Below, piece after piece: positions 1,825-64,000 of a DNA stretch of 64,000 bases (position 1 is the first letter of the stretch; every line of letters starts with the position of its first letter). The stretch lies in assembly GCA_947467605.1 (NCBI GenBank), contig CANIII010000001.1:56846-120845 (forward strand). Direction: 5' to 3'. The translations under genes and the position numbers were made by a program. Below the pieces are notes generated by a model, which did not search any database, had not been told where the DNA came from, and worked only from the letters and a program-made list of their open reading frames with translations. The DNA is from Acidobacteriota bacterium. GTDB taxonomy: Bacteria > Acidobacteriota > Vicinamibacteria > Vicinamibacterales > SCN-69-37.

Positions 1825-2562
1825 ATGCGCCGCTACTCGTTCATCGCCATCACGCTGGCCATCACCGCACTCCTGTCTGCGACGGCGGCGGCCGCGCAGA
1901 CCGGCGCGGTCATCAGCGTCAACGGCATCTATCAAGGCGGCACCGAGGCCGTGTCGAACACCGTCTCGTTCACGGCCAACGCTGAGACGGCCACATTCAC
2001 ATCGAACTTCCCGGTGAAATCGGGCCCCGGTTTCGACGCGGGCCTGCGCGTGGGTGTGCGTGGCGCGATCGGCGTGGCCATTGGCATCACGCGCTTCACG
2101 GCCACGGGAAACGCCGACGTGACCGCGAAGATCCCGCACCCGTTCTTCTTCAATCAGCCACGAAGCATTGCCGGCACCGCGAATCTGTCGCGTGAGGAGA
2201 CCACGACGCGCCTCGCGATCGTGTTCAGTTCAGCAGCCAACAAGCGCGTGCAGGTATCGGCGTTCGTCGGCCCGGCGTTCTTCTCCGTGAAACAGACCCT
2301 CGTGGACGCGGTGAGCTATACCGACAGCTACCCGTACGACACCGCCACGTTCGGCCAGGCGACGACCAAACAGGTCACCAAGTCGAAAACCGGCGTCACA
2401 GCGGGTGCCGAGGTCAGCTACTTCTTCGCCAAGCACGTCGGTATTGGCCTGACGGCGGCCGTGGCCAAGGCCACGATCCCCATCACCGCCGTGGACGGGT
2501 CATCGGTGAGCCTGAGCGCCGGGGGCACTCAGATCGGCGCCGGCCTCCGGTTCCGGTTCTAG
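1825..2562 (+). CDS. Outer-membrane beta-barrel protein (hypothetical)
   Basis: ATG at 1825, one nt after the M4 stop codon. Signal peptide MRRYSFIAITLAITALLSATAAAAQ, alternating beta-strand-like sequence, C-terminal GLRFRF. The track ORF start at 1705 lies inside the upstream gene and is rejected. Confidence 0.7.
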   Translation: MRRYSFIAITLAITALLSATAAAAQTGAVISVNGIYQGGTEAVSNTVSFTANAETATFTSNFPVKSGPGFDAGLRVGVRGAIGVAIGITRFTATGNADVTAKIPHPFFFNQPRSIAGTANLSREETTTRLAIVFSSAANKRVQVSAFVGPAFFSVKQTLVDAVSYTDSYPYDTATFGQATTKQVTKSKTGVTAGAEVSYFFAKHVGIGLTAAVAKATIPITAVDGSSVSLSAGGTQIGAGLRFRF

Positions 2563-2647
2563 GCGGCCGCCGCAGTTCTGCGTAGCGCCGAGTACGTATT
2601 TGTTCTACATTGTTCCTTCGGTTACTCTTTTTGCGGAGGCACTTGCT

Positions 2648-3034
2648 ATGAAGTCTGGAATGTTGCGTGCGGTAGGCGTGATGCTGCTGGTTGGCGCGGC
2701 CGCGTGCTCGACGGTCAACAAGCACGTCAGCAAGGGCTTTGAGGCGTACCAGAAGTTCGACTATGCCACGGCCTAAATTGAATTCAAGAAGGCACTCGAA
2801 GACGACAAGGACGATCCCTACGCGCAGCTGAACATGGGCGCGCTGTATCAGGCAACCGGCCGGCCGCAGCTCGCGATCGGGTTCTACAAGATCGTGCTTG
2901 AGAGCGGCAAGAACATCCGGCCGAATCGCAAGACGGCGAACGCCAAGACGCAGCAGGCCAGCCCCACGCTTGCCGAGATTGCACAAGCCAACCTCGCCGC
3001 ACTCGCTGCCGCGGCCACCCCGATCAAGAAATAA
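2648..3034 (+). pseudogene. TPR-repeat lipoprotein gene interrupted by one in-frame TAA (2774..2776)
   Basis: GGAGG lies 8 nt upstream of ATG 2648. Lipoprotein signal MKSGMLRAVGVMLLVGAAAC. The frame continues as ...FEAYQKFDYATA*IEFKKALEDDKDDPYAQLNMGALYQATGRPQLAIGFYKIVLE..., so the stop sits inside a TPR helix pair. The downstream 66-aa track ORF (2834..3034) is in the same frame (2834-2648=186). An intrinsic terminator follows. Confidence 0.6.
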
Positions 3035-3053
3035 GCACCCGTCAGAAACACCA

Positions 3054-3090
3054 ATGGCCGGACGGCAATCGCCGCCCGGCCATTTTTGTT
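3054..3090 (+). terminator. Rho-independent terminator after the TPR lipoprotein gene
   Basis: Hairpin TGGCCGGACGGC-AATC-GCCGCCCGGCCA followed by TTTTTGTT. Confidence 0.7.
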
Positions 3091-3091
3091 G

Positions 3092-4756
3092 CTATCTCTG
3101 TCCCGCTCCGCCCACACGTCCCGTGCCGGGCAATTGTGGCATCGTCGCCGGCGTGAAGCGCGGCAACATCTGATCGCGCATCGCGAGGTGATACACCGCC
3201 GAGGCCACCGCGATCGCTGAACGCTTCACGTCCGCTTCGACGATCCGCTCGAGCGTGTCGAGGTTGGTGTGCCACGTGTGGCTGTTGTATTCCATGCCGT
3301 CCTGGCCGAGGCCGATGCCTGGCAGACCCGCCGCATTGAACGACGTGCTGTCTGTGCCGCCGGCCGCGCGGCTCGTGGTCACCGTGGCGCCGTAGACGCC
3401 GATGTCTTCGAACGGCTTGAAGAACTGGCCGAGGACCTGTCCGGCCTCGGGCGGGCCGAACACCGAACCGCCGTGGATCTGTCCGGTGCCGCCATCCACG
3501 TTGAAGTAACCGTTGAACTTCGCGAACTCCGGCTTTGGCGCTTCCGCTGTGCCGAAGTGCTGCGCGACATACGCCTTCGAACCCAGCAGGCCTTCTTCCT
3601 CACCAGCCCAGAGCGCGACGCGAATCGTGCGGCGCGGCTTCACGCCGAGCGACTGCAGGATGCGCGCGGCTTCCATCATCACCGCGCAGCCGATGGCGTT
3701 GTCAGTCGCGCCGGTCGCCGAGTGCCACGAGTCGAGGTGCCCACCGAGCATCACCACTTCATCGGCTTTGTCGGTGCCCGGAATCTCCGCGATCGTGTTG
3801 TAGGTCGTCTTGCCGGCGGGATAGAGCTCGTTCGTAATCGCGAACTCGAGCCGCACCGGTGTACCGTCCGCGAGGATGCGCGTGATGCGGCCGTAGTCTT
3901 CGTTGCGCATGACGACGGTCGGCACGGTCTTGGCGGCATCGTAGCCGGCGAAGTTGAATGCGCGAATCTGGCCGTGCTCGCGCGCGGCGTCGTTCACGCG
4001 CACCGCAGCGGCGTTCTTGACCAGAAAGTCGTTCACCGCGGTCGCGACCTGCGCTGCAGTCAGTGTGCCCGCAGGCGGTGCCGCGGGTGGCGCGCCGGCG
4101 CCGCCGGGCCGTGCACCGCGACCCCCAGCGTTCGGATCCGCCGGCGCACCGCCGTACCGCGCGCGCGACTGCTCTTCGGTTTGGCGTTTCGCGGGCGGCA
4201 CTTCCTGAAACGGCACCCAGGTATGCGGCCCGACGAGCACGACAGCGCCCTTCACTTTGGTGGCCATCGAGTCGAGATACGTCTTGAGGGTCGCGTCGGT
4301 CGCGTTCGCGGGTGTCAGCAAGTTCACGGCGTTGGCCACGACCGTGCCCTTCGTCGACGGCGTCCACGCCAGCACTTCGAACACGAGGTTGTCCTGCACG
4401 GGTGCAATCAGATGTCCGGTGGCCTTCTTGTTGAGCCAACCACCGGCCGGCGTCACGGTCGCGGTCTTGAACTCGAACGGCTCCAGGTGACCATTCTTCA
4501 TGCCCCATTCGGTCATCTGCGTGATGGCCCACTTGGCGGCGTTCTCGTGATTCGGTGAACCGGTGACACGCGGCCCATACACATCCGTCAGAAAATGCAT
4601 CGTCCGCATGATCTGCGAATGATCCATGCCTTCGGTACGGATCCGTGCGTTCATGGCCGTGTCGATTTTTTCTGCGGGCGCTTGCTGGGCCTGCAGAGCG
4701 GGCAGGCCGGCGGCGAGACCGAAGGCCAGAACTGGGGCAATCCATTTGCGAAACAT
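3092..4756 (-). CDS. Secreted M28 family aminopeptidase with PA-domain insert
   Basis: Signal peptide MFRKWIAPVLAFGLAAGLPALQAQ. M28 metal-ligand regions GGHLDSWHSATGATDNAIG and RVALWAGEEEGLLGS. Paralogue of the gene at 40176..41786. Confidence 0.85.
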   Translation of the reverse strand: MFRKWIAPVLAFGLAAGLPALQAQQAPAEKIDTAMNARIRTEGMDHSQIMRTMHFLTDVYGPRVTGSPNHENAAKWAITQMTEWGMKNGHLEPFEFKTATVTPAGGWLNKKATGHLIAPVQDNLVFEVLAWTPSTKGTVVANAVNLLTPANATDATLKTYLDSMATKVKGAVVLVGPHTWVPFQEVPPAKRQTEEQSRARYGGAPADPNAGGRGARPGGAGAPPAAPPAGTLTAAQVATAVNDFLVKNAAAVRVNDAAREHGQIRAFNFAGYDAAKTVPTVVMRNEDYGRITRILADGTPVRLEFAITNELYPAGKTTYNTIAEIPGTDKADEVVMLGGHLDSWHSATGATDNAIGCAVMMEAARILQSLGVKPRRTIRVALWAGEEEGLLGSKAYVAQHFGTAEAPKPEFAKFNGYFNVDGGTGQIHGGSVFGPPEAGQVLGQFFKPFEDIGVYGATVTTSRAAGGTDSTSFNAAGLPGIGLGQDGMEYNSHTWHTNLDTLERIVEADVKRSAIAVASAVYHLAMRDQMLPRFTPATMPQLPGTGRVGGAGQR

Positions 4757-6975: not shown

Positions 6976-7707
6976 ATGCCCCGCTACAAGTTGACTGTCG
7001 AATACGCCGGAACGCGCTACAGCGGATGGCAAATCCAGCAGAACGCCAAGACCGTGCAGGGCGAACTCGTCCGCGCCATCAAGGAAGGCACCGGCGCGAA
7101 GCACGTCGAGACCTACGGCTCCGGACGCACCGATGCCGGCGTGCACGCGCTCGGCCAGGTGATGCACGCGGACCTGCCGCTGAACCTGCCGCCGGCCACG
7201 CTCATCATGCGGATCAACGACGCGCTGCCGGCCGACATCAACGTGCTCGACGCCGAGCGCGTCTCGCCGCGGTTCCACGCGCGCCACAGCGCCGTGGCCC
7301 GTCACTATCGCTATCAGATCTCTACACGTCGCACTGCGTTCGAGAAACCTTTCGTGTGGTGGGTGCGTGAACCGCTCGACCTCGCACGGATGCAGGCCGC
7401 GGCCGACGCGCTCACCGGCTTCGGCGACTTCCGATCGTTTACCGACGATGACCCGGAGGAAAAATCGACGCAGGTCCTGCTGACGTCGCTGACGATCACC
7501 GACGAATCGCCGCTGATCGTGGTCCGCGTGACCGGCTCGCACTTTCTCTGGAAGATGGTGCGGCGTCTGGTCGGCGTCATTGTCGAGGTCGGCCGCGGCG
7601 GACTCTCGCCGCACGACATGACGCGCCTGCTCCGCTCAGACTCAGAACTGCCGGCGAAGCTCACCGCACCGGCATCAGGCCTCTTCCTCGAGCACGTCGA
7701 CTACTGA
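6976..7707 (+). CDS. truA: tRNA pseudouridine(38-40) synthase TruA
   Basis: YKLTVEYAGTRYSGWQIQ and the catalytic GSGRTDAGVHALGQV motif. Confidence 0.9.
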   Translation: MPRYKLTVEYAGTRYSGWQIQQNAKTVQGELVRAIKEGTGAKHVETYGSGRTDAGVHALGQVMHADLPLNLPPATLIMRINDALPADINVLDAERVSPRFHARHSAVARHYRYQISTRRTAFEKPFVWWVREPLDLARMQAAADALTGFGDFRSFTDDDPEEKSTQVLLTSLTITDESPLIVVRVTGSHFLWKMVRRLVGVIVEVGRGGLSPHDMTRLLRSDSELPAKLTAPASGLFLEHVDY

Positions 7708-9053
7708 TCTTTCCGATATTTGCCGAGCCGATAGCGAATCTGATCGCGATGCACGCCAAGCAGGGACGCGGCGCGCGTCTGGTTGCCGCCGCTTCGATCG
7801 AGCGCCTGCATGACGAGGCTCTTCTCAACGTCATCCAGCCGGCACCCCTCGTCGGGCAGGCGGAAGGGCGTGGAGGCATCCGGCGCGACTGGCAGACCAC
7901 CGAGGCAGCCGAGGTGCGAGGGCTCGATCACCCCCCCGGAGGCGAGCATCACGGCGCGGTCGATCACGGCGCGCAATTCGTCGACATTGCCCGGCCAGTC
8001 GTAGGCCGACAACGCCGCTTCAGCCGCCGGCGACAACTCGCGAATATCGAGGCGGCGCGCCCGGCGATTCTGATCCACGAAGTGCCGCGCCAGGACGACG
8101 ACGTCCTCGCGGTGGTTGGCGAGGGGCGGCATCTCGAAGCCCAGCACGTTCAAGCGATAGAACAAGTCGGACGGAAACGTGCCGCGCTCCACGAGCGCCT
8201 CGATCGAACGCGTGGACGCCGCCATGATGCGCACGTCGACGCGGATGTCGGTGCTGCCGCCGACACGGCGAAATTCGCGCGACTCGAGATATCTCAGCAA
8301 ACGCCCCTGCAGTGACGGCGACAGCGTGTCGACATCGTCGAGCAGGATGGTGCCTTCGTGCGCTTCGTCAAAGACGCCGCGCACGTGCGTGCCGACTTCG
8401 ACGCCCGGCTGCGGCTCCCGACCGAAGAGCTCGGCGTCGAGCGCCTCTTCGGACATGGCGGCGCACGGCACTTTCAGGAACGGTCGCATGGCGCGGCCGC
8501 CGCCGCAGTGGATGACGCGCGCCACGTGATCGCGGCCAGTCCCGCGACCGCCGACGAGCAACACCGGCGCGTCTTCGCTGGCCGCCACCTTGCGCGCCAG
8601 CGCGCGGGTGCGCTCCATGGCCGGGGACACGCCGAGGAGTGACGTCGGCGTGAACGGCCGCGCGAGGCGGTCGCGCAGCGTACGCAGTTCGCGTCGCAGG
8701 CGTGTCACTTCAAATGCGCGCACCATGCGACGCGCGATGTCGTCAGGATCAATCGGCTCGTACGCGTAGTCGAACGCGCCGCCGGCCAGCGCCGTGGTGA
8801 CCATAGCGGCGTCTTCACGACCAGCGAGCAGGATGATCGGCGGATCCGGATCTCGATCGTGCACGCCGGCCAGGACGGCCAGCGCAGCTTCATTCGGCAT
8901 ACGAGCGTCGAGGATGACGGCGTCAATGCCGGCGTCGGCGCGTTCGACCGCGTCCTCAGCCGTGTCGGCTTCCACCACCTCGTGACCATCCGCGCGCAGC
9001 CGTTCGGCCAGCGGCCAGCGCATCGGCACGATCAGCACGCGTTTCGCCGACAT
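7701..9053 (-). CDS. Sigma-54 activator (NtrC/Fis family) paralogue with degenerate receiver and AAA+ motifs
   Basis: Receiver-like N-terminus, AAA+ core and a C-terminal Fis-type HTH (GNQTRAASLLGVHRDQIRYRL). Walker A reads GGRGTGRD. The GAFTGA position reads GVEVGTHVRGVFDEA. The receiver lacks the DD pair and the conserved Lys (YAYEPID). Confidence 0.8.
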   Translation of the reverse strand: MSAKRVLIVPMRWPLAERLRADGHEVVEADTAEDAVERADAGIDAVILDARMPNEAALAVLAGVHDRDPDPPIILLAGREDAAMVTTALAGGAFDYAYEPIDPDDIARRMVRAFEVTRLRRELRTLRDRLARPFTPTSLLGVSPAMERTRALARKVAASEDAPVLLVGGRGTGRDHVARVIHCGGGRAMRPFLKVPCAAMSEEALDAELFGREPQPGVEVGTHVRGVFDEAHEGTILLDDVDTLSPSLQGRLLRYLESREFRRVGGSTDIRVDVRIMAASTRSIEALVERGTFPSDLFYRLNVLGFEMPPLANHREDVVVLARHFVDQNRRARRLDIRELSPAAEAALSAYDWPGNVDELRAVIDRAVMLASGGVIEPSHLGCLGGLPVAPDASTPFRLPDEGCRLDDVEKSLVMQALDRSGGNQTRAASLLGVHRDQIRYRLGKYRKDQ

Positions 9054-37795: not shown

Positions 37796-39364
37796 TTGCC
37801 GCCGATGTTGCTGCACCACCAGTTTTTTGCGACCGCTCGTCGCTGCTCGAGTCAGTTGGCGATGGCCGACAGCACGGGAATGAAATTGACGTACGGGCAG
37901 GCGTTGATCGCGACGCTCGCCTTTGCGCGCGCGATTCACCGACGCACCGTCGGTCAGGAGATGGTCGGCTTGATGCTGCCGGCGTCGGTCGGTGGCGCGC
38001 TCGCCAACATCGCGGCGCTCGCCGCGGGTCGGATCCCCGTTAATTTGAACTTCACAGCCGGCGGCGATTCCATCGCCATCGCCATCGAACGCTGCAAGAT
38101 CAAGACGATCATCACGTCCAGAACATTTCTCGACAAATCGGGCATCGCTGCGACACCGGCCATGGTGTTTCTCGAGGACATCCGCAAGTCCGTCACGCGC
38201 ACCGATAAGGTGACGGCGCTGCTCCACGCGAAGCTGGCGCCGATGGCCCTGCTGCGGCGCGCCTACGGACCGTCGGACGACGCTGATGCGCTCGCGACGG
38301 TGGTCTTCTCGAGCGGCAGCACGGGTGTTCCGAAGGGCGTCATGCTCACGCATCGGAACATCCTCAGCAACATCGAGGGTTTCGCCGACTTGTTTCCGAT
38401 GACGCCGCAGGACTGCTTCATCGGCGTGCTGCCCTTCTTCCACTCGTTCGGGCTGACAGGCACACTGTGGTTTCCGTTGATCAGTGGCTGCGCCGTCGCG
38501 TTCCATCCAAATCCGATGGACTCGAAGGTCGTTGGCGAGCTCGCGTCGACCTACAAAGGGACGATGCTGATCGCGACGCCGACGTTCGCCAATGCCTACA
38601 TGCGTCGGTGCACACGCGAACAGTTTCAGCACATGCGGCACGTCGTCGTTGGCGCAGAGAAGCTGCGCCAGCCGCTGGCCGAGGCGTTCGCGCAGCACTT
38701 CGGCGTCGAGTTGATGGAGGGCTACGGGTGCACGGAGATGTCGCCGGTGATCTCGGTCAACTTCGCGCACGTGGGCACGGCGAATCCGAGCAAGCCCGGT
38801 TCGGTGGGACGCCCGATCAAGGGCGTGTCGGCAAAAGTTGTCGATCAGCATACCGGCGAAGGGCCGATCGTGGGGCGTGAGGGCCTGCTGCTGGTGAAGG
38901 GCGACTGCCTGATGCGTGGCTATCTCGGCGAACCTGAGCGCAGTGCGGAAGTCTTGCGCGACGGCTGGTACGTGACGGGCGATATCGGATCGATCGATGC
39001 GGACGGCTTCATCACGATCACCGACCGGCTGTCACGCTTCAGCAAGATCGGCGGCGAGATGGTGCCCCACCTGCGGATCGAGGACGCGATCAACGAGGTG
39101 CTCGGCGAGGTCTGCGCAGCGGTGACGGCGGTACCGGACGACACGCGTGGTGAACGGTTGGTGGCGTTCTACACAAAACAGGACGTGCCGCCTGGCCATG
39201 TGTGGGAGCAGTTGAATCAGACTGCCCTGCCGCGCCTCTGGCTGCCGCGCAAAGACCACATCTTTGTGACCGATGCCATTCCGACGCTGGGCTCAGGAAA
39301 GGTCAACCTGCAGGCGCTCCGGCAACTTGCGCAAGGGGCACTCACTGAAAACATCGGGAGTTAA
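37796..39364 (+). CDS. AMP-binding enzyme, Aas-like acyl-ACP/acyl-CoA synthetase module (no acyltransferase domain)
   Basis: VVFSSGSTGVPKGVMLTHRNI, GYGCTEMSP, WYVTGDIGSIDADGFITITDRLSRFSKIGGEMV. The last five codons and the stop (ENIGS*) lie inside the REP palindrome. Confidence 0.8.
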   Translation: MPPMLLHHQFFATARRCSSQLAMADSTGMKLTYGQALIATLAFARAIHRRTVGQEMVGLMLPASVGGALANIAALAAGRIPVNLNFTAGGDSIAIAIERCKIKTIITSRTFLDKSGIAATPAMVFLEDIRKSVTRTDKVTALLHAKLAPMALLRRAYGPSDDADALATVVFSSGSTGVPKGVMLTHRNILSNIEGFADLFPMTPQDCFIGVLPFFHSFGLTGTLWFPLISGCAVAFHPNPMDSKVVGELASTYKGTMLIATPTFANAYMRRCTREQFQHMRHVVVGAEKLRQPLAEAFAQHFGVELMEGYGCTEMSPVISVNFAHVGTANPSKPGSVGRPIKGVSAKVVDQHTGEGPIVGREGLLLVKGDCLMRGYLGEPERSAEVLRDGWYVTGDIGSIDADGFITITDRLSRFSKIGGEMVPHLRIEDAINEVLGEVCAAVTAVPDDTRGERLVAFYTKQDVPPGHVWEQLNQTALPRLWLPRKDHIFVTDAIPTLGSGKVNLQALRQLAQGALTENIGS

Positions 39365-39390
39365 TTCAGCGAATTAACTCCCGATGTTTT
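39348..39390. repeat. REP palindrome, copy 1
   Basis: AAAACATCGGGAGTTAATTC-AGC-GAATTAACTCCCGATGTTTT, with perfect 20-bp arms. Confidence 0.9.
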
Positions 39391-40052
39391 GGTTGCGACC
39401 GTGGTCCCGGCCTTCGAAGCCCACGAGTTGTTCCGAAAAGGCTTGCCATCGCGTGGCTCCAAGCCTCGGCGCCGAACGGCAGGTTCGAGTGGGCGCACCT
39501 GCGCAGGGCGCACACCTCGCGCTGGTTCTGCGGGTCGTTGACGAGGTCAATCCAGTGGTCGGGCCGCAAGACCGGCCACGGCTCCAGTCTGGGCGTGTCG
39601 AAACCTTCTTCGCGGCATCGAAGGCTTGACCACGGCCAGTCCTGGGCATGGCCGACTAGATTTGCTCGGAGAGGATTCGCCTCGACGTAGCGGCAGGCTG
39701 CGTAGAAGTAGTGCTCGGTCTGGATTGGAAAGGCCCGAAATCTCCCCTGGTAAACCGCTCCCCCGCCTTTGGATTTACGGCGGCGATGCCATCGCTTACT
39801 GTGTCGGATCGTCATGAGTCTCATGAATCGAGTGAGAGCCAGATCTTCCGCAGGGCGGACAATCAGGTGGAAGTGATTGGGCATCACGCAGAAGGCAAAA
39901 AGAGCCACCGGAGCAAGTTCAAGTGCCTCGGCCAAGCACCCGACAAGAGTCAGGTAATCGTCGACATCGTCGAATAACTGCATGCGCCGCACACCACGGT
40001 TCATGACGTGAAAAGTCAGTCCGGCGGATCCGGTTTGGGGGCGGTGCGGCAT
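39366..40052 (-). CDS. REP-associated tyrosine transposase (RAYT, IS200/IS605-like Y1 transposase)
   Basis: TFHVMNRGVRRMQLF, HUH motif CVMPNHFHLIVRP, and GRFRAFPIQTEHYFYAACRYVEANPLRANLV with the catalytic Tyr region. The ATG at 40052 is preferred over the TTG at 40109. The last eight codons and stop lie in REP copy 1. Confidence 0.8.
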   Translation of the reverse strand: MPHRPQTGSAGLTFHVMNRGVRRMQLFDDVDDYLTLVGCLAEALELAPVALFAFCVMPNHFHLIVRPAEDLALTRFMRLMTIRHSKRWHRRRKSKGGGAVYQGRFRAFPIQTEHYFYAACRYVEANPLRANLVGHAQDWPWSSLRCREEGFDTPRLEPWPVLRPDHWIDLVNDPQNQREVCALRRCAHSNLPFGAEAWSHAMASLFGTTRGLRRPGPRSQPKHRELIR

Positions 40053-40114: not shown

Positions 40115-40160
40115 AGAAACATCGGGAGTTAATTCATTGAATTAACTCCCGATGTCTTCT
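40115..40160. repeat. REP palindrome, copy 2
   Basis: AGAAACATCGGGAGTTAATTC-ATT-GAATTAACTCCCGATGTCTTCT, with a one-base indel between the arms. Confidence 0.9.
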
Positions 40161-40175: not shown

Positions 40176-41786
40176 CTACTTCCGCGGCAACATTTGCTCC
40201 CGCGTGGCTGCGTGCCAGGCGTACACCGCAACCACAGTTGCGGCCTGCTTCACGTCTTCCATCTGGACACGGTCGAGGAAGTCCATGTTCGTGTGATGCG
40301 TGCGCGAGTTGTATTCGAGGCGCTCCTGCACGAACTGGAACGCGGGAATGCCGACTGAATCAAATGACGAGTGGTCGGTGGACGCGACGTTGCGCGGACC
40401 AAAGATGGTCACGCCCAGGTCCTTCAATGGTGCAGACCACGCTTCGAAGATGGGCTTCACCGCCAAGTTGCTCTGCAGCCACATGCCCCGGATCTTGCCA
40501 GTGCCGTTGTCGAGGTTGAAGTAGGCCGACAACTTCGCCATCTCTGGCTTCGGCGCGTCCTTGGTGCCGAGGTGCTCGGTGACGTAGGTGCGCGATCCAA
40601 TCAACCCGCCCTCTTCGGCGCCCCACAGTGCGACGCGGATGGTGCGGCGTGGCTGCAGGCCCGCCGCTTTGATGATGCGCAGGGCTTCCATCATCTCTGT
40701 GGATCCAGTCGCATTGTCGGTCGCACCGGTCGCGCTTGCCCATGAATCGAAGTGCGCGCCGAGTAAGACAATCTGATCCTTCAGGTCCGTGCCGGGGATT
40801 TCGCCGACCACATTGAAGCCGCTCATGTTCGCGGTCTCTTCGTTGAACTTCACCGACACATTCAGCTCCACCTTCACCGGCTGGTTGTGTTCGATGAGGC
40901 GCACCATGCGGTTGTAGTGCTCCACCGCGAGGACGATCTGCGGCGGCGCGGCGTCGGTGGTCGCCGACGTCGCGCTGACGCCCGCGGCCGACTGCACCGC
41001 ATACGTGCCGCCGTCGGGATGCTGCTGCTGCCACGTCAGATCAGAGCCAGCCGCTGCCATGTCGCTGTTGGCGCCGCGGTCGAAGAGGGCGACGACGCCT
41101 TCGGCTTTGTAGAACTCGTTGACGTTGAAGCCCGCGCCGCGGCCACCGCGCCCTGCCCCGCCACCGCCCGCGCCGGCGACCCCGCCGGCACCACCGCCTC
41201 GCGCAGCCGGGGGAGGCGGCATCGTCAGCGCTTCCTTCTCCCACTTCTTGTCTTTGTCGTCGTAGCGCAGCACCATGCCGTCGCCCTGATCGAGCATGCG
41301 CACCGCGCGCGCCGGCTGCGTCAGCACGATCTTGCCCTTGAGCTGGCCCTTGTATTTCGCCGCGCTTGCTTCATCCGTGATGTCGGCACGCACAACGTCT
41401 GCGACGATGGTGCCGCTCGTGCCCGGCGACCACGCCTTCACCGCGCCGTTGATCGGCATCACGCGCGGCTCGGTCATCGTCGCGTGGAAGTTGGTGAGCG
41501 TCCAGCCGCGACCGTACTTCCATCGCTCTTTGTGGACGTTCTGCACGCCGTACTTCTGCAGCTCTTTGACCGCCCAGTCGCCGGCCTCTTCGAAATAGGG
41601 CGAGCCTGTAAGGCGCGGACCATAGCGGTCGGTCAGCCAGAACATCGTCTCGGCGACCTGCGAATGCTCGAGGCCTTCCGTGCGGATCTTGGCGATCGCG
41701 GCCGCGTCAACTCTTTCGGTGGATTGGGCGGCGAGCGAACCGACGGTGACGCTCGCAAGCAGGACGGCAACAGCGCGAAATCTCAT
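40176..41786 (-). CDS. Secreted M28 family aminopeptidase with PA-domain insert (paralogue of 3092..4756)
   Basis: Internal ATG at 41786 gives the signal peptide MRFRAVAVLLASVTVGSLAAQ. GAHFDSWASATGATDNATG and RVALWGAEEGGLIGS. The track ORF continues in frame upstream to 42242. Confidence 0.8.
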   Translation of the reverse strand: MRFRAVAVLLASVTVGSLAAQSTERVDAAAIAKIRTEGLEHSQVAETMFWLTDRYGPRLTGSPYFEEAGDWAVKELQKYGVQNVHKERWKYGRGWTLTNFHATMTEPRVMPINGAVKAWSPGTSGTIVADVVRADITDEASAAKYKGQLKGKIVLTQPARAVRMLDQGDGMVLRYDDKDKKWEKEALTMPPPPAARGGGAGGVAGAGGGGAGRGGRGAGFNVNEFYKAEGVVALFDRGANSDMAAAGSDLTWQQQHPDGGTYAVQSAAGVSATSATTDAAPPQIVLAVEHYNRMVRLIEHNQPVKVELNVSVKFNEETANMSGFNVVGEIPGTDLKDQIVLLGAHFDSWASATGATDNATGSTEMMEALRIIKAAGLQPRRTIRVALWGAEEGGLIGSRTYVTEHLGTKDAPKPEMAKLSAYFNLDNGTGKIRGMWLQSNLAVKPIFEAWSAPLKDLGVTIFGPRNVASTDHSSFDSVGIPAFQFVQERLEYNSRTHHTNMDFLDRVQMEDVKQAATVVAVYAWHAATREQMLPRK

Positions 41787-42242
41787 GGGCGAATAGTAGC
41801 CCAGCGGAGACCCGTACGGCACGCGAGCCGCGTTCAGGTTTGCCTGGTGGCTTGGATACCGGGACGACGAGTCACGATCCACACAAGAATCACGACGGCG
41901 ACAATCGATACGGCGAGCGGACCGTGAGAAGAGATGATTCAGGGCTCGGTATGAAAACAGAGCGCCAGTCGCCAGCAGGCTGAGTCGCGCAGTCGTTGGT
42001 CCTAGCTTCCCAGCGATGAATAGCCACGGTGTCAGGCCGATCACCGCAAACGCCAGAATGACGATCCACTGCTGCTGCACATCCTGCCACTGGCCGATCG
42101 GCAGTTGCCCGATGGCGACGACGATGGGAGGTGGTGTGATCACAACCGCGACACACATCGCGCACAACTGCCAGCGCGTCAGTCGTCGTGATCCGCTCAG
42201 CAGGTCACTCAGACGTTCACGCAGGAGCGTCGATGGTTTCAT
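41787..42242 (-). CDS. PadR-operon membrane protein, third paralogue (no stop of its own; reads in frame into the M28 gene)
   Basis: Starts MKPSTLLRERLSDLL 3 nt after the upstream stop codon. Two or three hydrophobic helices, then an atypical Arg/Ser/Asp-rich stretch with low third-position G/C. Confidence 0.35.
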
Positions 42243-46473: not shown

Positions 46474-46518
46474 AAAAACATCGGGAGTTAATTCGATGAA
46501 TTAACTCCCGATGTTTTT
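46474..46518. repeat. REP palindrome, copy 3
   Basis: AAAAACATCGGGAGTTAATTC-GAT-GAATTAACTCCCGATGTTTTT, with perfect 21-bp arms. Intergenic. Confidence 0.9.
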
Positions 46519-47862: not shown

Positions 47863-49182
47863 TTATTCCAACAATGGGGCGGTCTTCGGACCGCCCTTTT
47901 TCTTTTCCTCAGATAACTTCCGCTCGAGCCGCGCGATCCGATGTGATGCATCGGCCGCGGCGCGACCGCCGGACTGCGCCTTCATGGTCTCCGCGTATTT
48001 CTTCGCCGCGTCGAGATCATTCGCGCGGTGTTCGTGATGAATCGCGAGCGCTTCCGTGGCGGCCCGTTCGAGCGGAAACAATGACCGGCGTCCGCCCGCC
48101 GCTTCGAGCACACCTTGCCACGCGCGCGCGGCGTCGTCATGGCGCGCGTCGCGACGATGCATGAGGCCGAGGCGGCTGAAGGCATTCGCGCGGACGTAGC
48201 GGTCGGACGAACGGGAGGCGCGATCGAACGCCTCACGCGCACGATCGTCGAGGCCCGCGCGTTCATAGATGCGACCGAGCGCGACGACTTCGTTGTCATC
48301 GCGGCACATATCGGGTCCGTCCTTCGCGAGTTGCAGCGCGTAGGACATCAACACGGCCAGCGAGACGATGTCGTGACGATGATGATCGAGGACACCGTCG
48401 AGCAAGTGATGATCGCCCGTGCGGAGAAACTGAAAGTAGCGCGCCGGGATCTCGAAGCCGGGGACGTCGCCGATGCGATGGAATCCCAGGACGTCACGTT
48501 CGAGCGTTGAAAGGCTACAACTCGATTCGCCACCCGGATCCGACACATTCTCACGGCTCTTCCAGAGTTTTCGCGCCGAGGGCAACATGTCGAAGTGCGG
48601 CATATCGTCGAACGGGCTCGGTTGGCGATGGTACGCGCAGCGCATGTCCATGAGCGGCACGTCGAAGGTGCGACCGTTGTAGCTCACGAGCAGCGAGGAC
48701 TCGTCCAGGCACGCGCCGAGTTCTTTCAATAGCAGACGTTCGCCGGCCTGGCTGGTGAGCAGCCACTGACGCACACGGAAGCCACCGCCTTCAAACCAGC
48801 CGCATCCGGCGAGAAACGCGATCGTGCCGGCGCCACCACTGAGGCCTGTGGTCTCGGTATCGAAGTACACCGGCCGCGACCACCACTCCGGCGCCTTCGC
48901 GGCCTTCGCATCGAAGATGTCGAGCGGCGCGCTCGCGGAGGGCGTGCACGTTTCGATGCGCCATCGCCCATGCGACTGGGTCGATTCATAGACGCGATCG
49001 ATCACGACGAGACTCGCCGCACCATCGGTGATCGCCGTGCCGCCGAAGGCCGCAGCGATGCCCTCCAGATCGTGTGGCGACGTCGCCTGAACGTCGGGTT
49101 CGTAGGTCAGGTCGCGCGCGGCCGGCCGGTACGGCGACTGGCGAACGATGGCACGAAGGCGGTCCGAGAGATCTTTACGCAC
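47863..49182 (-). CDS. mrfB: MrfB/YprB-like DEDD (RNase H-fold) exonuclease with C-terminal TPR region
   Basis: Exonuclease motifs VYFDTETTGL, SYNGRTFDVPLM and HHRHDIVSLAVLM, then TPR-like helices. The proposed GTG start at 49182 overlaps the helicase stop by 8 nt. The track start at 49284 is less likely. Confidence 0.7.
   Translation of the reverse strand: MRKDLSDRLRAIVRQSPYRPAARDLTYEPDVQATSPHDLEGIAAAFGGTAITDGAASLVVIDRVYESTQSHGRWRIETCTPSASAPLDIFDAKAAKAPEWWSRPVYFDTETTGLSGGAGTIAFLAGCGWFEGGGFRVRQWLLTSQAGERLLLKELGACLDESSLLVSYNGRTFDVPLMDMRCAYHRQPSPFDDMPHFDMLPSARKLWKSRENVSDPGGESSCSLSTLERDVLGFHRIGDVPGFEIPARYFQFLRTGDHHLLDGVLDHHRHDIVSLAVLMSYALQLAKDGPDMCRDDNEVVALGRIYERAGLDDRAREAFDRASRSSDRYVRANAFSRLGLMHRRDARHDDAARAWQGVLEAAGGRRSLFPLERAATEALAIHHEHRANDLDAAKKYAETMKAQSGGRAAADASHRIARLERKLSEEKKKGGPKTAPLLE
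47877..47906 (+). terminator. Rho-independent terminator of rpmE
   Basis: GGGCGGTC-TTCG-GACCGCCC followed by TTTTTCTTTT. Confidence 0.85.
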
Positions 49183-56147: not shown

Positions 56148-56152
56148 ATTCT

Positions 56153-56272
56153 AAGGGGTCAGAGCCCTTTTCCACAGGCTTCCACAGAAAAGGGACAGAG
56201 CTCGGCCAGCACCGCGTGGCCGAGCTCTGTCCCTAAATTGTGGAAACCTGTGGAAAAGGGCTCTGACCCCTT
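56153..56272. repeat. 120-bp nested imperfect palindrome filling a divergent intergenic region
   Basis: Outer arms 56153..56178 and 56247..56272 pair at 26/26 bp. Inner arms 56179..56208 and 56217..56246 pair at 25/30 bp. The 8-nt centre is GCACCGCG. Confidence 0.9.
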
Positions 56273-56283
56273 ATGCTCTTTGC

Positions 56284-62127: not shown

Positions 62128-63559
62128 ATGAAGCGCACACTCCTTCTGCTGCTGGCCCTCGCGACGCCCCTCGGTGCACAGGCGCCGTCGACCGGTTACG
62201 TCGCCGGAAAGCTCACACCTCACCAGTTGCTGTCGCGCGACATTTACAAACAGCTGATCGAGATCAACAGCGCAGACAAAACTGGCAAGGTCACGCCGGC
62301 GGCCGAGGCCATGGCCGCGCGCGTGCGAGACGCCGGCTTCGCGGCGAGCGACATCTTCGTCGGCGGCGCGCGACCCGAGAAAACACAACCTCGTCGTGCG
62401 CCTCCACGGCCGCGCAGGCACGACGCGCAAGCCACTGCTGCTGCTGGCGCACATCGACGTGGTCGAAGCCCTGAAGGCCGACTGGTCCGACAACCTGGAT
62501 CCCTTCGTCTTCACCGAGCGCGATGGCTACTACTACGGCCGCGGCACGGCTGACGACAAGGCGATGGCGGCGATCTTCATCGCGAACATCATTCGTCTCA
62601 AGCAGGAAGCCTACGTTCCCGACCGCGACATCATCGTTGCGCTGACCGCCGACGAAGAAGGCGGCACGGCGAACGGGGTCGACTGGCTGCTCAAGAATCA
62701 TCGCGCACTCGTCGATGCGGGCCTCGTCTTCAACGAGGGCGGCGGCGGCACCACGCGGGAGGGCAAGCCGCTGTTCAACGCGGTGCAGGCCACCGAAAAG
62801 GTGTTCGCAAACATCACGGTGCGGACCACAAACAAGGGCGGGCATTCATCGGTGCCACGCCCCGATAACGCCATCACGCAGTTGTCCGACGCGCTCGCCA
62901 AAGTGGGCCGCTACAACTTTCCGATCCAGTTCAACGACGTGACGCGCGGGTTCTTCACCGAGACGGCGAAGGTCGAGATGCCTGCGATGAGCAAGGCCAT
63001 GCTGGCGCTCGTCGCCAATCCGAAAGACTCCGCGGCCGCAGCGATCGTCACGAAGGACGCCCGCTACAACTCGATGCTGCGAACGACCTGCGTCGCCACG
63101 CTGCTCAAGGGCGGCCATGCAGAGAACGCGTTGCCGCAACTGGCCGAGGCGAACGTCAATTGCCGTATGTTCCCGGGCGACACCGCAGAAGGCACGCGGG
63201 CGGCGCTCGCCGCAGCCATCGGCGATCCGGGCGTCGAGGTCTCGGCTTCGTTTGAAAAGCGTCCGCCCGAGCCGCCATCGCCGCTGCTGCCTGAGTTGTT
63301 CGAACCGGTCACGCGCATCACCCACGAGATGTTCGGCAACATCCCGGTCATCCCGCTCATGGGCACGGGCGCGACTGACTCGCGCTACTTCCGGCAGATC
63401 AACATTCCGGCGTTCGGCGTCTCGGGGCTCTTCTCGGATCCAACCGTCGATGCGCGCGCCCACGGCCGCGATGAACGGATGCGCGTGCAGTCGTTGTTCG
63501 AAGGTCAAGAGTTTCTGTATCGACTGACCAAGGCGGTCAGCCAAAAAGCCGGGAGTTAA
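62128..63559 (+). pseudogene. Exported M20 family peptidase split by a +1 frame change in an A-run (62380..62383)
   Basis: Frame 1 reads MKRTLLLLLALATPLGAQA...DIFVGGARPEK and then becomes Arg/Pro-rich nonsense. Frame 2 (track ORF 62396..63559) continues ...NLVVRLHGRAGTTRKPLLLLAHIDVVEA...GRGTADDKAMAA. Removing one A from GAGAAAACAC gives the contiguous reading PEKHNLVVRLHG. Confidence 0.7.
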
Positions 63560-63581
63560 TTGGCAATTAACTCCCGGCTTT
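63545..63581. repeat. REP palindrome, diverged copy 4
   Basis: AAAGCCGGGAGTTAATTG-G-CAATTAACTCCCGGCTTT. It shares the core CGGGAGTTAATT with copies 1-3. Confidence 0.8.
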
Positions 63582-64000
63582 AATTACCTCGAGCACGGCC
63601 TCGCCGAGGTCGTTGACCTTTTTCTCGCCGAAGCCATAGATGTGGCGCATCGCGTCCATGTCGGCCGGCTTGAGGCGGGCGAGTTCGCGCAGCGTGGTGT
63701 CGTGGAAGATGACATACGGCGGCACACCGCGCTCGCGTGCGACGCGCAGGCGCAACGCACGTAGTTCCTCGAACAGATCCTTGTCGACGCCGCTCCACGA
63801 CTCGGTCTCGGTCTTCGACCGCTTCGGCAGCTTGCCCTTCTCCACCTTGCGCTGACGTGCGAGGACCAGACCAGGCGCCGCGCCGGCATCCTTCAGCAAG
63901 GCCACACCCTCGGCGGTCATCATCAGGATGGGATACTCGCCGTCGGTCTGCACGAGAAAGCCTTCGGCGATCAGCTGCTCGATGTAGCCGCGGACTTCGT
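63567..64000 (-). CDS. recQ: ATP-dependent DNA helicase RecQ, C-terminal part (gene continues past the right edge)
   Basis: HRDC domain DLFEELRALRLRVARERGVPPYVIFHDTTLRELARLKPADMDAMRHIYGFGEKKV. The frame stays open to position 64000 (EVRGYIEQLIAEGFLVQTDGEY, an RQC-like region). Confidence 0.8.
   Translation of the reverse strand, partial: EVRGYIEQLIAEGFLVQTDGEYPILMMTAEGVALLKDAGAAPGLVLARQRKVEKGKLPKRSKTETESWSGVDKDLFEELRALRLRVARERGVPPYVIFHDTTLRELARLKPADMDAMRHIYGFGEKKVNDLGEAVLEVIKAGS

Follow-up and report, generated by a model that had tools for sequence, protein, structure and literature searches.

A REP palindrome supplies the stop codons of an AMP-binding gene and of the convergent RAYT gene in an Acidobacteriota genome

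Repetitive extragenic palindromes (REPs) of the GTAG type frequently supply, with their termini, the stop codons of flanking open reading frames (ORFs), and they are also found inside ORFs, about 10% of the intragenic units lying at ORF ends and some being read in frame (Di Nocera, De Gregorio and Rocco 2013, PMC3733652). REPs have further been described directly downstream of the stop codons of rayt genes, which encode REP-associated tyrosine transposases (RAYTs), and a rayt gene bracketed by two REPs is what defines a REP/RAYT unit (Nunvar et al. 2010, PMC2817692). The supply of stop codons by REPs is a phenomenon already known. Here, we describe a case from an Acidobacteriota bacterium, which the names on database hits mark as Vicinamibacterales-like, in a window of 64,000 nucleotides (the whole stretch of DNA analysed; contig CANIII010000001.1, positions 56,846 to 120,845 of the forward strand), where one palindrome at window positions 39348-39390, REP copy 1, ends both an AMP-binding gene and the RAYT gene convergent to it. 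New are an untagged REP type in Acidobacteriota, the double stop, a phase bias among gene ends, and a clade-wide overlap of rayt and REP.

REP copy 1 reads AAAACATCGGGAGTTAATTC-AGC-GAATTAACTCCCGATGTTTT, with 20-nt arms of 100% complementarity and a 3-nt loop; as RNA it is predicted to fold at -38.5 kcal/mol (z = -5.68 versus shuffles). Each arm reads GGGAGTTAA on its own strand, and a TAA is carried in both orientations, as originally predicted. The AMP-binding gene, which ends in ..TENIGS (DNA ..LRQLAQGALTENIGS-TAA, stop at 39362-39364), draws its final 4 2/3 codons (E-N-I-G-S) and its TAA from the left arm. The right arm and the loop encode the last seven codons (K-H-R-E-L-I-R) of the RAYT gene, which ends in ..PKHRELIR (DNA ..GPRSQPKHRELIR-TGA, stop at 39366-39368 on the minus strand). 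A single nucleotide separates the two stops; this base, 39365, is the only non-coding one in the palindrome, the remainder being covered by the two ORFs, and all three phases of both strands are closed within the palindrome or at its edge. ORF reading therefore bears out the predicted arrangement of two stops, 1 nt apart, inside the palindrome. The RAYT stop had been placed in the loop and right arm; in plus-strand coordinates it actually consists of the last two nucleotides of the left arm (39366-39367) and the first loop base (39368), so that the RAYT ORF traverses the entire right arm and loop. The observation that one REP supplies the stops and last residues of both convergent genes is confirmed.

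The AMP-binding gene product matches the Pfam families AMP-binding (1.5e-70) and AMP-binding_C, and its top NCBIfam matches are acyl-ACP/phospholipid acyltransferase-type ligases. The RAYT product matches Y1_Tnp (PF01797) at 1e-10, barely passes the cut-off of NCBIfam REP_Tyr_transpos (80.4 bits, cut-off 80), and carries the motifs HFHLIV (HUH) and YVEANPLRA (Tyr) in its translation. The features discussed here are collected in Table 1.

Table 1. Coordinates of the REP copies and adjoining genes in the 64,000-nt window
Feature	Coordinates	Strand	Remarks
AMP-binding (acyl-ACP synthetase-like) gene	37805..39364 (ORF 37796/37805..39364)	+	519 aa
REP copy 1	39348..39390	no strand	perfect palindrome 20+3+20; 3'-side cognate REP of RAYT
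RAYT (REP-associated tyrosine transposase-like) gene	39366..40052	-	228 aa; Y1_Tnp, REP_Tyr_transpos
REP copy 2	40119..40155	no strand	5'-side cognate REP, 66 nt upstream of RAYT start codon
Peptidase_M28 gene	40176-42242	-	stop 20 nt from REP copy 2
REP copy 3	46474..46518	no strand	intergenic
Peptidase_M20 gene, 3' part	62396..63559	+	ends ..AVSQKAGS-TAA in left arm of REP copy 4
REP copy 4	63545..63581	no strand	subfamily AAAGCCGGGAGTTAATTG-G-CAATT..; both stops of convergent pair
RecQ-like gene (RQC/HRDC), 3' part	63567..64000	-	ends ..LEVIKAGS-TAA in right arm of REP copy 4

The arm sequence occurs six times in the window, in three palindromes, against 0.01 occurrences expected, so that chance is ruled out and the palindromes form a repeat family; a search with a shorter core revealed a fourth, giving a density of four copies in 64 kb. 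The hairpins have perfect stems, an AT-rich centre (GAGTTAATT..AATTAACTC) and A-run/T-run feet with T-runs of 3-7 nt, set in a genome whose genes have a GC content of about 80-90% at third codon positions. The TTAATT centre gives each copy, whichever way it is read, a TAA in two of the phases; a TGA that depends on the loop frequently closes the remaining one. Further copies are present in three related metagenome-assembled genomes (MAGs) and in metagenomes; a single fragmentary MAG yielded 15 with the exact core. No copy of the family is flanked by a GTAG or CGTC tag, and the REP was unmatched in Rfam, where only a tRNA passes gathering thresholds across the whole window. Taken with its position, the palindrome is a REP, namely one of the two cognate hairpins flanking RAYT. 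Intergenic copy 3 lies 8 nt after the stop of a TPR gene and 26 nt before the start of an aldo-keto reductase gene. Unrelated to the REPs is a single 122-nt inverted repeat at 56152-56273 (TAAGGGGTCAGAGCCCTTTTCCACAGG..., 57-nt arms, 91% complementary), the arm core of which is unique in the window.

Like GTAG/CGTC REPs, the window family consists of short palindromic repeats found chiefly between tandem and convergent ORFs (PMC3733652); it differs from them in being untagged, in its perfect palindromy and AT-rich centre, and in its Acidobacteriota host. GTAG REPs carry a terminal TAG, whereas the stop of the window family is located in mid-arm (GAGT-TAA), so that one hairpin can end genes from both sides, which it does twice in 64 kb.

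RAYT is bracketed by the REPs at 39348-39390 and 40119-40155, whose relative orientation is undefinable because both are perfect palindromes. In the window and in seven related loci (L007, L009, L010, L029, L046, L051 and L053) RAYT is flanked on both sides by the REP variant of its own lineage, for example CATCGGGAGTTAATTC in the window and L009, AATCGGGAATCAATTC in L007 and L010, GCCGGGAGTTAATTC in L029, CACCGGGAGTCGTTTC in L051 and GACCGGGACTCTTTT in L053, and REP and RAYT thus covary. REPs at orthologous sites were also seen to differ between lineages in both arms together, with GAGTTAATT, GAATCAATT or GACTCAATT at the junctions of the window (39348-39390), L007, L008, L010 and L011, and with CATCGGG or GCCGGG in the comparison of L045 with L020, the elements remaining perfect palindromes throughout. 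Such switches of both arms, with the palindromes staying perfect, indicate that REPs at fixed sites change in concert with the RAYT of the lineage.

In relatives, RAYT is syntenic, either adjoining the AMP-binding gene or lying in a lon-engB-rho neighbourhood, and the identical RAYT protein is found in one genomic context only, on 24 contigs. It behaves as a single-copy, vertically inherited resident gene, which sets it apart from insertion sequences such as IS200/IS605, with their several mobile copies in varying contexts. The layout corresponds to the REP/RAYT units described as 'REPtrons' (Nunvar et al. 2010, PMC2817692) and as REPIN/RAYT systems (Bertels and Rainey) in the single-copy PF01797 gene, the two cognate REPs, the covariation of REP and RAYT, and the synteny. 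It departs from REPtrons in that most clade members have a rayt ORF that extends into the 3' REP and takes its stop from there, that the GT(A/G)G head is missing from the REPs, which are no GC-rich imperfect palindromes either, and that RAYT has an extension of about 85 aa past Y1_Tnp with a basic RRPGPRP / RGRPKK motif ahead of the REP. This extension is shared by the RAYT clade (window 39391-39420 for the motif directly ahead of the REP; homologues P0139-P0199); the motif reads ..LRRPGPRP in near relatives and an AT-hook-like ..RGRPKK in distant ones, and its lysines derive in part from the A-run foot of the hairpin. At L011 (2120-2340), the order AMP-binding - REP - Peptidase_M28 takes the place of the AMP-binding - REP - RAYT - REP - M28 of the window, a layout consistent with loss of RAYT by recombination between its flanking REPs or with a state preceding RAYT.

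RAYT homologues are conserved to ..LRRPGPR[PS] (..RGRPKK in distant ones) and then continue into REP-encoded peptides, which represent the REP in three phases: ..NIGS/..KAGS/..NVGS, ..KTSGVNSTN/..KSGINSSN and ..KHRELIR/..KSRELIR. The RAYT stop lies within its own REP in 19 of the 25 closest homologues, a count that takes in L007 and L010, whose TGA sits in the outer stem; the RAYT of L008 ends at a TAA of its own. In three homologues of 50-55% identity, the TGA falls within the loop (L051, L052) or opens the second arm (L053); the hairpins concerned are quite different from those of the window and have a CCGGGA[GC]T core in common. The tails ..KTSGV[VIN]S and ..KKRPGLISEK of distant RAYT homologues were considered as a protein motif and rejected, the underlying DNA being the first arm of the REP of the respective lineage in differing phases. 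Judged from these alignments, a stop overlapping the 3' REP is the rule for this RAYT clade and not the result of a recent replacement, and the apparent C-terminal 'motifs' of RAYTs reflect conservation of DNA, not of protein.

On the side of the AMP-binding gene, conservation among 120 homologues extends to ..GSGK[VI]DLxxLRxLA, and the tails beyond it, about 5-30 residues long, are hypervariable and unrelated; the stop comes 20 residues after the end of the AMP-binding_C domain. At L009, with 82% identity and a REP identical in sequence to that of the window, the gene ends at a stop of its own (..QTVG-TGA), with 8 nt between it and the REP. The gene of L010 likewise ends at a TGA of its own, after which come 1.5 REP copies: at 3690-3764, between this stop and the RAYT end, a half REP (GTAAAATCGGGAATCAATTGAGG) stands directly upstream of the full palindrome. 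At L011 (89%), ..ITRVG-TGA is followed by 20 nt, a REP variant, 5 nt, and the stop of a convergent M28 peptidase gene. In L007 (91%) and L008 (88%), ..LRQLA or ..MAEELAI runs directly into another REP variant (GGGAATCAATT), with the ends ..VKSGINSPN-stop and ..VKSGIN-stop, and P0009 and P0012, too, enter the other variant and end in ..KSGINSxN-stop. P0009 reads ..LAVTRVG-VGRAEQTSGG-LKSGINSMN-stop, in which the presumed native ..VTRVG is internal and followed by a REP-coded tail, and this looks like an extension by stop loss.

The proposal that the REP had replaced the native C-termini is accordingly supported, with a nuance for RAYT: the tail of the AMP-binding protein is lineage-specific and REP-derived, while the run-in of RAYT is the norm of its clade and no recent replacement. 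In the orthologue alignments, proteins ending outside this REP have neither ..NIGS nor ..HRELIR termini, so that the shared termini that would have refuted the proposal are not seen. The junction DNA was compared over five syntenic loci, where the stretch from ..LRQLA to the REP proved too variable to align, and a clear picture of stop loss was obtained in P0009 only; the route to a REP-coded end may have been insertion of a REP into the tail, deletion, or stop loss. As the replaced tails are short, unconserved and located beyond the last Pfam domain, apparently nothing functional was truncated.

A second double stop is found at REP copy 4, where the M20 peptidase and RecQ-like genes converge. 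The HRDC domain of the RecQ-like gene ends 4 residues before the stop, and the double stop is repeated at the orthologous locus L035, which has a RecQ-like orthologue of 655 codons. In homologues of the M20 protein, conservation extends to ..EFLYRLTKA[LV], after which a tail of 4-9 residues follows (such as ..TQPATP or ..AAGK before the stop), and ..QKAGS at the terminus is confined to the closest relatives. Relative to the 99% identical protein P0241, the M20 gene of the window (62132-63559) is frameshifted at about 62380, residues 1-85 being in one frame and the remainder in another, which is either an assembly error or a sign of a pseudogene; the intact orthologues P0241, P0242, P0245 and L035 end likewise in ..QKAGS.

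The overlap of other REP copies with stop codons, raised in the original prediction, was surveyed by exact-pattern scans, which returned 22 genome and 17 metagenome stretches; 39 copies were left once chance matches in low-GC sequence had been dropped. Of 44 coding-like ORFs approaching a REP, some of them orthologous to one another, 14 have their stop within it. In 27 the stop precedes the REP, at a median distance of about 10 nt and in 17 cases at 0-20 nt, and 3 cross the REP in frame. Approximately 13 copies are in convergent, 15 in tandem and 4 in divergent context, with 7 unresolved, the counts being approximate as the classifier miscalls the RAYT-facing side (copy 2 of the window and copy 2 of L029). 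The bias of these copies towards 3' ends agrees with that published for REPs (PMC3733652).

Some copies are intragenic. A REP in its stop-free phase (..AAAEKHRELIQRINSRCFFSVVAH..) is read in frame inside an aminofutalosine-deaminase-like amidohydrolase (Amidohydro_1) at L045 2946-2990 (ORF 2254..3468, minus strand) and L020 2533-2577, and an orthologue in another MAG carries, at this position, the REP subfamily of its own genome. Simple insertion was rejected for the copy of L045, as its 15 REP-coded residues align to the PDB homologue 2imr with the length unchanged. At L028 7796-7840, a short-loop variant (..RQLKSGVNWQLTPDFNSPRG..) is in frame in a shikimate dehydrogenase gene (ORF 7350..7976, minus strand), directly before the NAD-binding Shikimate_DH domain. 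In-frame copies in protein genes are reminiscent of the Rickettsia palindromic elements; in comparison with these, the window family is much shorter (about 40 nt) and tied to RAYT, and the principal finding concerns gene ends, not gene interiors.

The best explanation, to which we assign a probability of roughly 0.7, is that a REP hairpin set against gene ends stops ORFs, and that the double stop is a by-product, recurrent and in large part to be expected where an AT-rich hairpin full of stops lies in a GC-rich genome. REP copies abut the 3' ends of genes, often occupying the gap between convergent ones; where a REP lands in a short unconserved tail, or where a small deletion, indel or stop loss occurs next to it, the ORF would enter the hairpin and stop there, the gene thereby acquiring a few REP-encoded residues along with a REP-encoded stop. 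With few chance stops in the genome, an adjacent REP would act as a catch-all stop, and loss or displacement of a native stop would be nearly harmless and might now and then be fixed. Selection would prune host run-ins that are translated through the loop and tolerate early stops in the first arm. The REP-coded tails themselves are probably functionless. As family knowledge and the anatomy of the locus suggest, the hairpin would serve as substrate of RAYT and plausibly also as a bidirectional transcript-end hairpin, be it a terminator or a stabiliser of mRNA ends.

Several points weigh against this explanation. Among independent host genes, eight terminate in the REP core, and all eight do so at the TAA of the first arm, their ends having the form ..[NKT][IAV]GS (window copies and loci L013-L050); the TAA of the second arm and the TGA of the loop serve RAYTs alone. 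Run-ins would then not be simply neutral. The chance of eight out of eight under equal phases is about (1/3)^8, and host genes with their own stop at most 40 nt before a REP are distributed 7:7:9 over the phases relative to the first-arm TAA. From this small sample with heuristic gene calls, the bias suggests that host genes tolerate the shortest run-in only. The gene calls of the survey are based on ORF length and codon-position GC, with no gene finder, and the view of copy number is limited to 64 kb of the source genome and fragmentary MAGs. Finally, a simple terminator scan flags REP copy 3 and passes over copy 1.

The phase bias to the earliest stop would also be expected of a selected, dual-purpose gene-end module, in which the terminating ribosome melts the hairpin and so couples translation to transcript-end formation or mRNA stability in both convergent genes, and in which RAYT expression could hinge on the state of its own substrate hairpin (autoregulation). 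Such a module could further account for the overlap of RAYT stop and 3' REP, which is kept to about 50% identity while REP sequence and phase change, and the A-run/T-run feet, typical of bidirectional terminators, as well as the terminator-like score of copy 3 point in the same direction. Stop-proximal REPs of E. coli reportedly also place a stable hairpin at or near the stop, there downstream of it, here with the stop inside the stem; those within about 15 nt of a stop codon are said to stall ribosomes and lower expression, with trans-translation involved, as Liang, Rudd and Deutscher reportedly found in 2015. However, 27 of the 44 surveyed gene ends are without stop overlap, the geometry is not conserved, as RAYT tails span three phases and the RAYT of L008 has its own stop, and purifying selection against longer junk tails explains the phase bias equally well, so that we consider a selected module unlikely. 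Slightly less likely still is a symmetric 'gene-end cassette' combining a two-way stop with a bidirectional transcript-end hairpin, which would admit host fusions only in the proximal-arm phase and in which translation of RAYT into its REP would feed back on the folding or occupancy of the substrate hairpin.

It is improbable that the palindromes are conserved bidirectional intrinsic terminators, with the link to RAYT incidental and the stop overlap a matter of compact packing, although their 3'-end location, their enrichment between convergent genes and a stem with a T-run on both strands would fit. Such terminators share with the REPs a symmetric hairpin between convergent genes, bounded by an A-run at one foot and a T-run at the other; the REPs differ in being a repeated, mobile-element-like sequence with an AT-rich upper stem and coding overlap, and termination by them is only putative. 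Near-identical sequences of 37-51 nt at unrelated loci are unexpected for independently evolved terminators, some copies lie inside ORFs and are translated in frame, RAYT lineages are flanked on both sides by their own variant, and orthologous sites switch variant with the lineage. An unrelated, canonical GC-rich terminator is present nearby at 47876-47897 (GGGGCGGTC-TTCG-GACCGCCC followed by a T-run), and the organism thus also uses ordinary terminators unrelated to REPs. There is very little to be said for an artefact, in which assembly or sequencing errors or wrong frames would conceal true stops upstream. The frameshift in the nearby M20 gene does tell us that the window is not error-proof, but the ends of both genes recur unchanged in at least 24 contigs, assembled independently and drawn from several samples, with the 228-aa RAYT, the 519-aa AMP-binding protein and the 1-nt gap called alike, which effectively refutes an error at the double stop; homologue alignments support both frames to within a few residues of the REP, and an upstream in-frame stop is absent from either ORF.

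By-product as the double stop probably is, it presents a concrete case, in a little-studied phylum, of a small mobile hairpin remodelling protein C-termini and gene ends, and it widens REP/RAYT biology from the GTAG-type REPs of Proteobacteria to untagged, AT-centred hairpins in Acidobacteriota. For annotation, it is a warning that the C-terminal ..NIGS, ..KAGS, ..SGVNSxN and ..HRELIR of metagenomic proteins are encoded by a repeat and should not be taken for conserved motifs. Whether such overlaps are neutral or regulatory can be tested by way of the phase bias and of the overlap of RAYT and REP across the clade.

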